Positions 3,395 to 13,063 of a stretch of 13,498 nucleotides of DNA are shown here, one piece after another. A program made the position numbers and the translations under genes. Source of the stretch: Octopus sinensis (taxonomy: Eukaryota); NCBI RefSeq assembly GCF_006345805.1, contig NW_021826051.1:1-13498 (forward strand), in the 5' to 3' direction. Within the stretch, counting starts at the first letter, position 1. The number at the start of each line of letters is the position of its first letter. The notes under the pieces are model-generated. The model was not told where the DNA came from. It saw nothing but the letters and a program-made list of their open reading frames with translations, and did no database searches.

Positions 3395-3402
<8 letters not shown>

Positions 3403-3686
3403 AATCAAAATGAGGGTGAAAAATTGGATATTAATTTGATAACATCAATTTTAACACCAGTGGTCTAGCATATTAAAAAAACTGAGATTCAGTAAATAAT
3501 ATTTCATACATAAATATAACAGGGAATTTTGTAACCACTATGTGGAAACCCTTATGCTAGAGGAAGATCCGCTATGATCTCAACCACTAAGAATTGTTCT
3601 CTAGAAAATTTAGCACACCAGAAACGTAAGCGAGCAAGACAAATGAAAAATAACAAAAATATAGATTAATCATAAACAATTATTTC
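3395..3686. mobile_element. Unclassified ~290 bp interspersed repeat embedded in (TA)n
   Basis: Complex AT-rich block bounded on both sides by (TA)n (3366-3394 and 3687-3703). No ORF, TIR or pol III boxes found. Confidence 0.4.
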
Positions 3687-3703
3687 ATATATATATATAC
3701 ATA

Positions 3704-4682: not shown

Positions 4683-4944
4683 ATACATACATACATGTAT
4701 GTATGTATGTATGTATGTATGTATGTATGTATGTATGTATGTATACTTAAAATATATAGGGTAGCGATTTTTGTTAGAAATTTCACTACATATATATATA
4801 TATGTATATATATATATGTATGTATATAGATGCATATATATATGTATACATACATATATATATATGTGTGTGTATTTCAACATATACATACATACGTATG
4901 TATGTATGTATGTATGTATGTATGAATGTATATATATATATATA
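4683..4944. repeat. (TATG)n/(TA)n microsatellite field interrupted by a 45 bp inverted element end
   Basis: TATG run ~4695-4744 and TA/TATG runs 4790-4944; complex insert at 4745-4789. Confidence 0.9.
4745..4789 (-). repeat. Inverted copy of the 5' end of the 4945-5436 element
   Basis: Reverse complement GTAGTGAAATTTCTAACAAAAATCGCTACCCTATATATTTTAAGT versus 4946-4990 GTAGTGAGATTTCTAAAAAAACTCGCCGCCCTATATATTTTACGT: 39/45 identical. Confidence 0.9.
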
Positions 4945-5435
4945 GGTAGTGAGATTTCTAAAAAAACTCGCCGCCCTATATATTTTACGTAGATTTTAGC
5001 ATTTTTAGAAGATTAGTTGGGCATTTTTTCATTTGCTGCCGACTGAAACTGCGCCTGCGCGGTGAACTTGGAAAATTATAATATATAATGATGAGACACC
5101 TGTTATTTGTCTCTACATCATACGTTAATGTGCGGTCATTGATGAGAATTTCACCTAGCAAATTATTTTAATTGCTAAATAAAATTCAAAACCTAGGTAT
5201 GGCCGTAAAAACATAAGAAGGTAAAAGTTTTTAATTTTCATTCCCTTCGAAATTGCCCTTAAATGTGGTTTTGGTCGTTTTGACTGCTTCTTCTAGCGTG
5301 TAAAGTTGCCTGTTAAAAGTAGTTTCTCTTGTGTGTAAATGTACACTATTTTACATTGAGAATATGTTGTCTATTGACTTTTTTATACATGCTCAGCCAC
5401 TGGTAGTGAAATTTCTAAAAGACTCGCTACCCTAT

Positions 5436-5436
<1 letters not shown>
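4945..5436 (+). mobile_element. Non-autonomous hammerhead-containing element with terminal direct repeats (retrozyme/PLE pLTR-like)
   Basis: Direct repeats GGTAGTGAGATTTCTAAAAAAACTCGCCGCCCTATA (4945-4980) and GGTAGTGAAATTTCTAAAAGACTCGCTACCCTATA (5402-5436), period 457 bp; internal hammerhead fold; no meaningful ORF; both ends abut microsatellites. Confidence 0.7.
5131..5207 (+). ncRNA. Type I hammerhead ribozyme (core-mutated copy)
   Basis: Stem I TGCGGTCA (5131-5138)/TGGCCGTA (5200-5207), 8 bp with 2 G-U; core TTGATGA (5139-5145; consensus CTGANGA); stem II GAATTT (5146-5151)/AAATTC (5182-5187), extended by TAGCAA (5156-5161)/TTGCTA (5172-5177); AAAA (5188-5191; consensus GAAA); palindromic stem III ACCTAGGT (5191-5198); cleavage triplet GTA (5197-5199). 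Confidence 0.8.

Positions 5437-5505
<69 letters not shown>
5437..5505. repeat. (CA)n(TA)n microsatellite
   Basis: Directly visible. Confidence 0.95.
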
Positions 5506-5510
5506 TATTT

Positions 5511-5726
5511 TATGTAGAAAAATACAAACTGGGACAAGAACGTAAAACATTTAGAAGACGATACAAAAAACACGGACGGGACATTCGAAGCCTTGAATCT
5601 TCAGTCAAGAACCGAATCATCGTAGCCATTTCGGCTTATTAATCTTGAGATCGCTCCAATCCGGCCAGCCCCAAGGAAAAACTAATCTACGAGCATTAGA
5701 TTTCTTGGAAGAAGGATCGAATGTAC
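5511..5726 (-). mobile_element. Unclassified short interspersed element in (TA)n
   Basis: Complex block bounded by TA runs; minus strand has CGAAA...CTGAAGA followed by a T-rich tail. Orientation inferred by analogy with 5739-6064. Confidence 0.45.
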
Positions 5727-5738
5727 ATATATATATAT

Positions 5739-6064
5739 TGTCCTGTCGTTTACTGTTTTTATTTGTATTTGTATTTTTACTGTCTTGTATTGTTTTTACT
5801 GTCCTGTTTTTGTTACCACTTTTACCCCTCCGCAAAAAATCTCAAATTATTTGCGGGAAGGACTGTTTCATCGAAGTCGTGTCTCGCCTTTACCTTCGAA
5901 ACGCGGAGTAGACAAAACAGAGGCGGCTGAAGAAGGGGAATTTTCCTTGTGTCGTATGTCTTGTACCCTGTTTTTTTCGTTGTTTAAAAAAATGTCCGTT
6001 TCCAAGGTTCTATTTTTATGCTTTCGTTTCTCATTGTGTTCGACGTTTTTTGGTGTCCTGTACC
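5739..6064 (+). mobile_element. Unclassified short interspersed element in (TA)n
   Basis: Bounded by TA runs; begins and ends near TGTCCTGT; central CGAAACGCGG...CTGAAGAAGG; T/G-rich flanks. Confidence 0.45.
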
Positions 6065-7116: not shown

Positions 7117-7530
7117 TAGTTCAAATTTCAGCGAGATTGAATTATATATTTCATCTTTCCTGGGCGGTCGGGTGTGTTTGTCAAGTACTTAGCAGTCAGT
7201 ATTAAAAAAAAGAAGGAGGAGTTTGTTTTATTTGACTATCTCCTCCTCTGACACTTGTGGCATTATTTTCAATGTTTTCTGGCAATGTTATTAATAAACA
7301 GAGAGCAGTGGATGACTAGTTGAATCGATGGAAGGTCGGATTTAATGTGCCACAGTGTTTCGTTATGTTTGTTTATGGTCTGAGTTCAAATCACACAGAG
7401 GTTAACTTTCGCTTTCATCCTATCGTTGGGTCGATAAAATAAGTACCAATGAAATATTTAAATCGACTCTACTCCTCCCCGCGTCTTCGAAATATGTGAC
7501 ATTGTGCTTCTTCTAGAAATCCTTATTACT
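7117..7530 (+). mobile_element. Two old degenerate Nin-domain SINE copies (~7117-7265 and ~7305-7530)
   Basis: Second copy: CTGAGTTCAAATC...CTTTCGCTTTCATCCTATCGTTGGGTCGATAAAATAAGTACCA, homologous to 9705-9770. First copy is fainter (AGTTCAAATTTCAGCGAG...TTTCATCTTTCC). Confidence 0.7.
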
Positions 7531-9179: not shown

Positions 9180-10335
9180 AAACATCGCTAGAGAGCCGAA
9201 CAAAACGACGCGTTATTTGTATTTATTTAGGTTGCCTTGCAAAAAAGCCCGGCGATAGAGAGTTCTTGTTCCAGCTCTTCGCGTTCTGAGTTCAAATCGT
9301 ACAGAGGGTCAACTTTATTTTACATCTTTCTGGGGTAAATGTAATGGACTTGGCCTACGCCCGCTAAAATTGTTTGTCAGCTAAAATCTGATATCATTAT
9401 TGTTAGTTAAGGAGGCGAGCTGGCAGAATTGTTAGCGCGCATGGCGAAATACTTAGCGGTATTTCACCCATCGCCACGTTCTGAGCTCAAAATCTGCCGA
9501 TGTCGACTTTGCCTTACATCTTTTCGGGGTCAATTAAATGAGTACCAGTTACGCACTGGGGTCGATGTAATCAACTTAATCCCATGCCCCAAATTTCAGG
9601 CCTTGTGCCTACAGTAGAAAGGATTGCTAGTTAAGGCGGCGAGCTGGCAGAATCGTTAGCACGCTGGGCGAAATGCGTAGCCGTATTTCGTCTGCCGTTA
9701 TGTTCTGAGTTCAAATTCCGCCGAGGTCGACTTTGTTTTCATCCTTTCGGAGTCGATAAATTATGTACAAGTTACGCACTGGGGTCGATATAATCGACTT
9801 AATCCGTGTGTCTGTCCTTGTTTGTCTCCTCTGTGTTTAGCCCCTTGTGGGTAGTAAAGAAATAAGTATTTCGCCCGTCGCTACGTTCTGAGTTCAAATT
9901 CCGCCTCAGTCGACTTTGCCTTTCATCCTTTCGGGGTTGATAAAATAAGTAGTAGTTAAACATTGTGAGTCGATGTAATCGAATAATGCATCCTACTAAA
10001 AACTGCTGGCCTGGTACCAAAAATTGAAACCATAAAGGGGTGAGCGAGCAGAATCAGTTGAGTGTCTGACTTTTCACATTCTGAGTTCAGATTCCACTGA
10101 GGTCCACCTTGCTTTTCATCCTTTCGGAGTCGATAAAGTAAAGTAATCTGTCCCCTCCTCATAAAATTGCCAACCTTGTGCCAATATCTGCTACAATTAT
10201 TATTTTGGGACTTAAGAGCAATGCATGACAGAATCATTATTATCACAAACAAAATACCGTGTTGTTTTAGAGACGCATTTCACATTCTTAGTTCAAAAGT
10301 CACTGGCATTGACTTTGTAATTCACTCTTGTTACA
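9180..10335 (+). mobile_element. Head-to-tail cluster of about six tRNA-derived Nin/Deu-domain SINE units
   Basis: Recurrent TTCTGAGTTCAAAT (B-box region) plus GTCGACTTTGCCTTTCATCCTTTCGGGGTCGATAAA-like (Nin/Deu-like) blocks. Units: ~9180-9400 (old), 9411-9622, 9635-9865, 9866-10031, ~10036-10205, ~10220-10335 (old). Heads GG(A/C)GGCGAGCTGGCAGAAT at 9411 and 9635. Confidence 0.9.
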
Positions 10336-11502: not shown

Positions 11503-11600
11503 AAGGCAAGAAATTTTGGGATAGGGTTTAACTCGATTAAATCGAACCCTCAGTGCTCAGGTGGTACTTATTTTACCGACGCCGAAAGGATAAAAAGATA
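11503..11600 (-). mobile_element. Nin-domain SINE 3' fragment
   Basis: TCGATTAAATCGAACCCTCAGTG...GGTACTTATTTTACCGACGCCGAAAGGATAAAA is a diverged match to 12150-12210. Confidence 0.75.
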
Positions 11601-11739
11601 ACGCCGAAAGCCAAATTGCTCCTTCGTCAGAAGAGGGGGAAAATACAAAATCTTTGGTCGGTAATAATAATAAACATATTTTCCAAATATGTAATGTCTG
11701 TAACATTAGCATCTACGCAGTCGACAACACTAAATGAAC

Positions 11740-12313
11740 ACTCCTTTCACAAGGCCTGGAATTTGAGGGGAAGGGGATAGACGATCACGTCAACTCCAGT
11801 ACTTGTCTGATACTTAATTTATCGACATCCGAAAGGATGAAAGGCAAAGTCAACCTCGGCGGGATTTGAACACGGAACGCAGCGACGGGTGAAATACCTA
11901 TTTCTTTACTACCCACAAGGGGCTAAGCACAGAGGGGACAAACAAGGACAGACAAACGGATTAAGTCGATTACATCGACCCCAGTGCGTGACTAGTACTT
12001 AATTTATCGACCCCGAAAAGACGAAAGGCAAAGTCAACCTCGGCGGAATTTGAACTTAGAACGTAACGGCAGACGAAATACTTATTTCTTTACTACCCAC
12101 AAGGGGCTAAACACAGAGGGAACAAACAAGGACAGACAAACGGATTAAGTCGATTACATCGACCCCAGTGCGTAACTAGTACTTAATTTATCGACCCCGA
12201 AAGGATGAAAGGCAAAGTCGACCTCGGCGGAATTTGAACTCAGAACATAACGGCAGACGAAATACGGCTACGCATTTCGCCCGGCGTGCTAACGTTTCTG
12301 CCAGCTTGCCGCC
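11740..12313 (-). mobile_element. Trimeric Nin-domain SINE: one head plus three units at 184 bp period
   Basis: Head GGCGGCAAGCTGGCAGAAACGTTAGCACGCCGGGCG starts at 12313. GAAATAC recurs at 11891, 12075 and 12259 (exact 184 bp spacing). Two near-identical units and a third older unit with a different tail. Confidence 0.92.
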
Positions 12314-13063
12314 TTATATAACAAGTGATATTACGGAGTATATTAGTTGCTTAACCACTCCACTGGAAGCGGTCTGGACTATAGTTGTTAGTTTGAAGCT
12401 CTAAACTAACAGTGGCATTCGTACATCTGTATGTACATAGAAGATATACTGTAAACTGTATGTATACTGATGTGCGAGCGCTTGTGTGTGTATGTATATA
12501 TGTATGCGTGTGTGTCTGCGTTTGTAATTTGATAGCTTCTATGAGCAATAAATTCTCAAGCTGGCTTGCATCTAGTAAAACTTAAAAAGCAAATATGTCA
12601 AACTTAAGCTTGCTATTTATTGCGGCATTACCTGACTGACGAAATTTCCAGAAACCTGTGTCCGCGTTGACTAAATTTCAGATAATTTGTACTCATTTTG
12701 ATGTACAATAAAGAGGAGTGAGCATCTTAATCTAGCTTTAATCAGTAACTGCACACTTGCAATGACAATCACAGAACACTGCCAAAGCGATCCAATAAAA
12801 TACGTCCAGTCACTTACTCGTTCAATAACTCCCACATACACCCGTCCACACACACATACACATATATGCACACACACACACACATACATACATATTCACA
12901 AAAATAGACACATATATATGGGCATGCATATATGACCAATGAGCCAGAATTTTCGGTTTCACATTAAATTTTTCATTTCCCAGCAAAAGGAGAAAAGACC
13001 CACGCCAAACTCGTCTAAGAGCACGCAGCAAAGTAAAAACGAAAACGAAAGCAAATAATTTCA

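Follow-up and report, generated by a model that had tools for sequence, protein, structure and literature searches.

Results

A 457-nt non-coding unit with hairpin ends lies within a microsatellite tract

The window that we analyzed (the whole stretch of DNA, 13,498 nucleotides in length) contains, at positions 4945 to 5401 of the + strand, a repeat unit of 457 nt with 34% GC, which is present as a single unit at this locus and is bounded by direct terminal repeats. The left terminal repeat (4945-4980, + strand) and the right terminal repeat, which we term the tail (5402-5436, + strand), are identical at 31 of the 36 positions of an alignment that includes one gap (86%), and their local-alignment score of 45 was reached by 0 of 1000 dinucleotide shuffles (maximum 37). 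This confirmed the direct terminal repeats reported in the preliminary description of this locus. Every one of the six frames of the unit contains between 8 and 18 stop codons, i.e., there is no open frame, and microsatellite arrays flank the element on both sides: a TA/TATG array of 155 bp found by repeat scan (4790-4944, no strand assigned), which is likely the expanded target of insertion, a role that we infer, and, downstream, a CA array (5436-5490) followed by a TA microsatellite (5437-5503 for the whole flank, no strand assigned, from the sequence and the repeat scan). The earlier claim of a non-coding element within a TA/CA microsatellite therefore holds.

Two features of the terminal repeat were absent from that description, i.e., a third, inverted copy and the hairpin nature of the repeat itself. 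The third copy (4789-4744) is 87% identical to the left repeat and 91% identical to the right repeat, and forms part of an inverted 46-nt stump (4744-4789, - strand) that lies head-to-head with the main copy, on the far side of the TA/TATG array. The boundary of this stump is the hairpin base of the main element, one base inside, and it extends approximately 11 nt beyond the redundancy into the start of the unit. The left repeat consists of a hairpin (4945-4975) and, after it, a TA tract, and the tail of an 8-bp hairpin (5402-5431) followed by CTATA. All three copies are predicted to form hairpins with the element boundary as their base (z-scores of -3.0, -4.3 and -6.4 for the left, right and inverted copies); in a wider context of 56 nt, the z-score is -1.5.

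Within the unit, a GC-rich box in otherwise AT-rich sequence (5049-5063, + strand) is a candidate internal promoter element, based on its sequence and on its conserved G/C letters, with those at 5053, 5059 and 5060 altered in less than 20% of contig depth in the three large sequencing runs described below; we take this box to be NRF1-like. No tRNA gene was found in the window using ARAGORN, and thus no tRNA head was detected for the unit.

Several other blocks in the window are worth recording. Two further non-repetitive blocks (5503-5730 and 5742-6062) lie within the same microsatellite tract and are possibly other decayed microsatellite-targeting elements; they contain lone CTGAAGA boxes (5604 on the minus strand and 5927 on the plus strand), with no full hammerhead by descriptor. 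An AT-rich block of approximately 300 bp (3396-3690) with TA runs on either side could be a further microsatellite insertion. A dispersed SINE-like family is present on both strands (7375-7440, 9400-10141 and 11541-12324), with a 184-bp unit of this family found in 2.5 tandem copies at 11811-12265; presumably this family, as seen at 9400-10141 and 11541-12324, resembles an octopus SINE.

The unit contains a type I hammerhead that is mutated in this copy

When both strands of the whole window were scanned with a descriptor that allows up to two core mismatches, a single type I hammerhead was identified, spanning 5131-5207, or 5123-5218 on the + strand with the distal stem included (from the descriptor scan, contig majority letters and folding). 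The proximal part of stem I (5131-5138 with 5200-5207) comprises 8 bp and is followed by core positions 5139-5145 and by a long stem II (5146-5187) with a 6-bp base, in which helix II is composed of 6 bp, a 4x4 loop and a further 8 bp. The GAAA box at 5188-5191 leads into a helix III palindrome, ACCTAGGT (5191-5198), with A5199 at position N17; cleavage is predicted after 5199, which places the tail hairpin 202-237 nt downstream of the predicted cut. The distal part of stem I (5123-5127 with 5214-5218) pairs only with the letters of the wider family, and was drawn after those majority letters were known, with free folding also recovering it.

Examination of 1500 shuffled sequences demonstrated that the loose motif occurs in 17, the motif with equally long stems in one, and the motif with these stems and the palindrome in none. 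The central hammerhead fold noted previously is thus well supported, but its core is mutated in this copy, with a T at C3 (5139) and an A at G12 (5188). G12 has a catalytic role in the hammerhead. Since C3 and G12 are both mutated, this copy is predicted to be inactive; in the ribozyme of an anole Penelope-like element (PLE), mutation of C3 is reported to abolish activity (PMC11167929). A search of Rfam returned no hammerhead match, only miRNA matches driven by the microsatellites and chance matches. The terminal 35-nt repeats contain no hammerhead by the descriptor scan.

The family to which this copy belongs has an intact core

Contigs from 4 of 24 sequencing runs (19 of the 24 share some words) were aligned to the element. 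Three of these are large runs, representing three organisms (D, A and E, with word shares of 0.40, 0.34 and 0.32) and presumed from their size to be genomic DNA; the fourth is a smaller run guessed to be RNA. For differences, the contig statements that follow draw on 40 rows out of 111; for joints, on 15 out of 54; for loose ends, on 24 rows out of 714; and for pieces, on 32 out of 5444. Contig depth is used as a measure of shape, and not of copy number. The large runs contain 1808, 2338 and 1051 matching contigs, mostly 90-95% alike, and all bins of the element are covered in all four runs. The presumed RNA run contributes 57 contigs, 37% of which continue into unlike sequence, and these have no bearing on expression or on circles.

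Among the rows listed, most majority letters are the same in all three large runs. At 5139 the family carries C (229.7 of 258.9, 970 of 1152.6 and 201.1 of 219.3 of depth, i.e., 84-92%), and at 5188 it carries G (646 of 723, 4727 of 5275 and 479 of 537 of depth, i.e., 89-90%), demonstrating that the hammerhead core of the family is intact and that the present copy is decayed. The expectation in the preliminary description of a multicopy family with an intact consensus core is thus borne out, with 1051-2338 contigs per large run. Approximately 27 of the 40 rows listed (111 in total) are majority differences, which puts this copy at a distance of 5% or more from its family.

Majority letters also repair the stems. 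T5171 and A5202 mend stems II and I, respectively, and T5123 and C5217 complete the distal stem I. Taken together, eleven majority letters between 5112 and 5225 change the pairing from 24 Watson-Crick pairs, 2 GU pairs and 3 non-pairs to 28, 1 and 0, and the core from 9 of 11 positions to 11 of 11; when the same types of substitution were placed at random, the core was restored in 6 of 5000 trials and the energy was reached in 12 of 1000. Two frequent variants, A at 5146 (42-55% of depth) and A at 5201 (33-49%), would break pairs unless their partners are changed too, as judged from the 40 of 111 rows listed. In the terminal hairpin, a G at 5405 and loose ends with TCACCACC would form a compensatory pair, the two not being observed together on a single contig. 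Cofolding of two motifs with family letters gave a double hammerhead with an 8-bp intermolecular helix III and an energy of -53.6 kcal/mol, vs. 2 x -21.2 kcal/mol for the two motifs singly. Exact-motif searches gave 0 matches in contigs from metagenomes, genomes and viruses.

These data bear directly on the explanation that a target-site duplication or chance gave rise to the repeats, with the fold being incidental. Some animal retrozymes are noted to have long duplications (PMC7229834), and the lack of an Rfam hammerhead match would fit an incidental fold. However, the repeat is family sequence with deep coverage at 5398-5415, a third copy is inverted and all copies fold as hairpins, and the two core letters that the family restores are exactly C3 and G12. 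A target-site duplication is largely refuted by this family coverage, inverted copy and restored core, and we regard the whole explanation as very improbable.

The 3′ module is common to sister groups with other hammerhead half-motifs

Summed contig depth is greatest across a 3′ module (5218-5401, + strand; maximum at 5218-5400), is approximately 5-fold lower on stem II, and is approximately 100-fold lower at 4948-5037, with the dips in depth coinciding with clusters of differences. This profile suggests that more abundant relatives or truncated copies have the 3′ module in common with the unit; the module also occurs in a sister group whose hammerhead has another 3′ half, and we consider it a candidate RT recognition region. 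The full 457-nt unit is possibly a minor form, and none of the contigs listed covers the full stretch. The small unit is not confined to this locus. Diverged contigs bridge 4962-5129 (runs X17 and X18), 4962-5126 (X1, the presumed RNA run) and 5025-5291 (X18), with the records for 4962-5129 in two large runs carrying 30 other letters, and the majority letter at 5019 is found in 13-29 contigs per large run. Indels cluster at 4991-5006.

Loose ends point to sister groups that share the 3′ module, in each case from half-motifs. Those ending before 5216 carry a sister motif, GAAAC-CATG-GTC, with another 8-nt palindrome (17, 20 and 17 contigs); this motif is the consensus in two of three runs and one letter off in X18, with an agreement of 0.61-0.63. 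In those ending before 5140 (14 and 9 contigs), the strand of stem I differs from the one in this element. In the sister group found before 5216, both the helix III palindrome and the cut triplet differ from those of the element under study.

Examination of the 15 of 54 joints listed showed that one X18 contig runs from 5420 through a tail-like stretch to 4992, and that four rows join 5383/5384 to 4945, 4949 and 4960. These joints fit tandem read-through, with none of the joints listed having two ribozymes on one contig. Strand inversions account for 8 of the 15, and the joint 4946/5379 links opposite strands. Joints from 4947/4948 to 5433 were set aside as chance matches of the microsatellite.

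No partner gene is apparent in the window

No ORF encoding an RT or GIY-YIG domain is present in the unit, and none is apparent by eye among the 77 frames of the window; with the tails only 457 nt apart, there is no room for an RT gene. The + strand frame 4947-5435 has the fewest stops (8), two of which vanish with the majority letters at 5171 and 5234, and this is possibly due to chance. Within it, the frame 5142-5435 (with X at four stops) had no Pfam match and no longer homologue among 144 protein candidates, the latter being a weak test, and a coding remnant in the unit was set aside on this basis.

This question matters to a further explanation, namely that the unit is an internally deleted or 5′-truncated end (pLTR and tail) of an abundant autonomous PLE, and is a by-product that does not propagate itself. 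The steep fall in depth towards the 5′ end and the presence of the same 3′ module in another hammerhead group are consistent with this, the indel cluster at 4991-5006 is a possible deletion junction, and the pLTR and tail of known PLEs are described as including the ORF start (PMC11167929, PMC3846280), which the few stops of frame 4947, two of them lost with majority letters, would match. Against it, diverged copies share the linkage of tail to interior (4962-5129 in two large runs and 4962-5126 in the presumed RNA run), the majority letter at 5019 recurs in 13-29 contigs of each large run, a solo pLTR would bear one tail and not two, and the protein searches, weak as they are, gave no match. 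We consider this origin unlikely.

Discussion

Our analysis identifies a multicopy family in which the majority hammerhead core is intact, helix III is palindromic, and, at this locus, a hairpin stands at both ends with an inverted stump alongside. The reading that we prefer, with a probability of roughly 60%, is that the element is an old and catalytically damaged copy of a non-coding type I hammerhead family, likely a non-autonomous PLE in the class of non-LTR retrozymes, one that would have entered a TA microsatellite through copying of a linear RNA longer than one unit by the borrowed RT/endonuclease of a PLE.

This reading builds on what is described for PLEs generally, i.e., a tail of 30-40 bp, an inverted and truncated copy on the 5′ side, and a bias towards microsatellites (Craig 2021, PMC8557442). 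The locus contains a hairpin of 35-36 nt at the insertion end, which from its length and position would correspond to the PLE tail, and an inverted truncated copy on the 5′ side (4789-4744) with 155 bp of microsatellite between; the microsatellite setting also holds at this locus. Head-to-head inversions and a 31-bp tail are also described by Arkhipova (2013, PMC3846280), where an antisense template was argued. Non-autonomous Chlamys elements are reported to share their 3′ ends with autonomous ones (PMC8557442). In the anole PLE, RT is reported to start at two internal sites, at a stem-loop downstream of the hammerhead (Frangieh 2024, PMC11167929), with the tail being the stretch between the two start sites (PMC11167929). 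The locus departs from the published PLE picture in having a tail at both ends, since published tails are usually found at one end only (PMC8557442).

We propose that the + strand corresponds to the RNA, a polarity suggested by the ribozyme. A PLE protein would nick the (TA)n target, and DNA synthesis would start just 3′ of the terminal hairpin (at 5436, and approximately 11 nt further for the stump). The RT would then copy one unit and halt on reaching the upstream hairpin's base, the outcome being a unit plus 35 nt, i.e., a PLE tail at both ends, with the stump as a short product between the same signals. The hammerhead is predicted to cut only as a dimer, in tandem or between paired RNAs, in which case monomer transcripts would remain uncut and insertion would not depend on cleavage. 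In the anole PLE, ribozyme mutants are reported still to insert, cleavage is dispensable in vitro, and no RNA reads end at the cut (PMC11167929).

The main competitor is a retrozyme templated by a circle, in which tandem transcripts are resolved to 457-nt monomers by double-hammerhead cleavage and ligated, and RT makes one round plus 35 nt. This is possible but doubtful. The majority core is intact and the palindrome is competent for dimerization, the joints from 5420 to 4992 (one contig) and from 5383/5384 to 4945, 4949 and 4960 (four rows) are continuous from head to tail, circles are reported for repeats of the same class in coral, mussel and axolotl (PMC7229834), and more-than-unit copying from a circle has been proposed for PLEs, as a hypothesis (Cervera and de la Pena 2014, PMC4209133). 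However, linear tandems yield the same joints, the two ends share a hairpin base, and the anole PLE needs no cleavage, according to the published work on it (PMC11167929). At 457 nt, the unit exceeds the 170-400 nt of the circles reported and sits at the edge of the 150-450 bp given for the repeats (PMC7229834), and 8 of 9 Xenopus dimers are described as uncleaved in vitro (10.64898/2026.07.22.740005). Circular folding of this decayed copy gave an MFE of -91.2 vs. -87.4 +/- 5.7 for shuffles (z = -0.67), with 60% of the letters paired, no better than the shuffles and at odds with retrozyme circles, which are described as highly self-paired; a rod-like circle was set aside on this basis.

Several claims of the preliminary description are affected. 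It read the terminal redundancy as the trace of RT running round a circle of approximately 457 nt, but a tail of 30-40 bp is a general PLE signature. It also took the position of the ends as a sign of such copying, whereas 4945 and 4789, at this one locus, begin at the same hairpin base, and fixed ends were among the outcomes that the description itself named as counting against a circle. The tandem pLTR transcript that it offered as an alternative is a better fit than the circle. Its proposal of a ribozyme-bearing family mobilized by PLE RT survives in its multicopy nature, intact core and PLE-typical setting, and is not supported as regards circle copying. Fixed ends at this locus, a tail that can arise without a circle and an unremarkable circular fold lead us to favor a linear template over a circular one.

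A broader form of the circle idea can be drawn, in which a widespread, undescribed and probably cephalopod ribozyme family has a 457-nt circular RNA as its template and exactly one unit with an added 35-nt hairpin as its standard product, and comprises sister groups with swapped helix III palindromes. We hold this only tentatively and think it improbable. Were the palindromes so swapped, each sister group would dimerize only with its own kind, and if true, such a family would offer a natural way to ask if the PLE tail comes about when copying goes round a circle from one fixed hairpin signal to the next. Since a discrete hairpin tail bounds both ends and the stump here, a genome-wide map of end points could separate linear internal initiation from circle copying.

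Comparison with known systems

In plant LTR retrozymes, each of the long terminal repeats carries a hammerhead of type III, whereas we observe one central type I motif; as the 35-nt repeats hold no hammerhead, the plant type was rejected. With the dimer-acting hammerheads of newt and axolotl type (PMC4209133), the motif shares a 2-bp helix III, a 4-nt palindromic loop and a double-hammerhead cofold, palindromic metazoan hammerheads being described as double-hammerhead forms in the same paper (PMC4209133). It differs in lacking the extra nucleotide between A9 and G10.1 of the minimal PLE consensus, and in a helix II of 6 bp, a 4x4 loop and 8 bp, compared to 4-8 bp. The pLTR and tail of endonuclease-bearing PLEs are matched by the extension of 30-40 bp, the head-to-head inverted copy, the stem-loop end downstream of the hammerhead and, at this locus, the insertion into TA-rich or microsatellite DNA. 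In contrast, the element here is without an RT/GIY-YIG ORF and has the tail at both ends and as an inverted stump.

Metazoan non-LTR retrozymes are alike in being short, AT-rich, non-coding and multicopy units with one type I hammerhead, commonly found as solo monomers and proposed to derive from PLEs. They are unlike in that the unit length of 457 nt lies at the upper limit of the range given in 2020, in the long stem II, in the single unit found here, and in a circular fold that is not above shuffles. Animal retrozymes, mussel included, were defined and their circles shown by Cervera and de la Pena (2020, PMC7229834), and the preprint of Li, Clavereau and Pollet (2026, 10.64898/2026.07.22.740005) argues that they are non-autonomous PLE derivatives, often monomeric and linked to PLE pLTRs, in a sample that, as presented there, has no mollusc (10.64898/2026.07.22.740005).

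The available text of these retrozyme papers holds no cephalopod example of a non-LTR retrozyme, and no cephalopod retrozyme or hammerhead case was found in the literature searched, including a text search with two short sequence motifs; a mention of octopus in PMC10886601 proved to be a reference title and was discounted. In the O. vulgaris genome, PLEs are reported to make up 6.83% in 190 families, and the available text of cephalopod repeat descriptions that report abundant PLEs does not mention ribozymes. Dfam, Repbase or the O. vulgaris library may well contain the family, labeled Penelope or unknown. Should the host be an octopus, our findings extend hammerhead-bearing, non-autonomous PLE derivatives to cephalopods, an extension that is expected and not surprising, since such motifs are known from mussel, oyster and limpet (the latter two listed in PMC4209133). 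In kind, the element is likely one already known from other animals, a passenger of Penelope-like elements.
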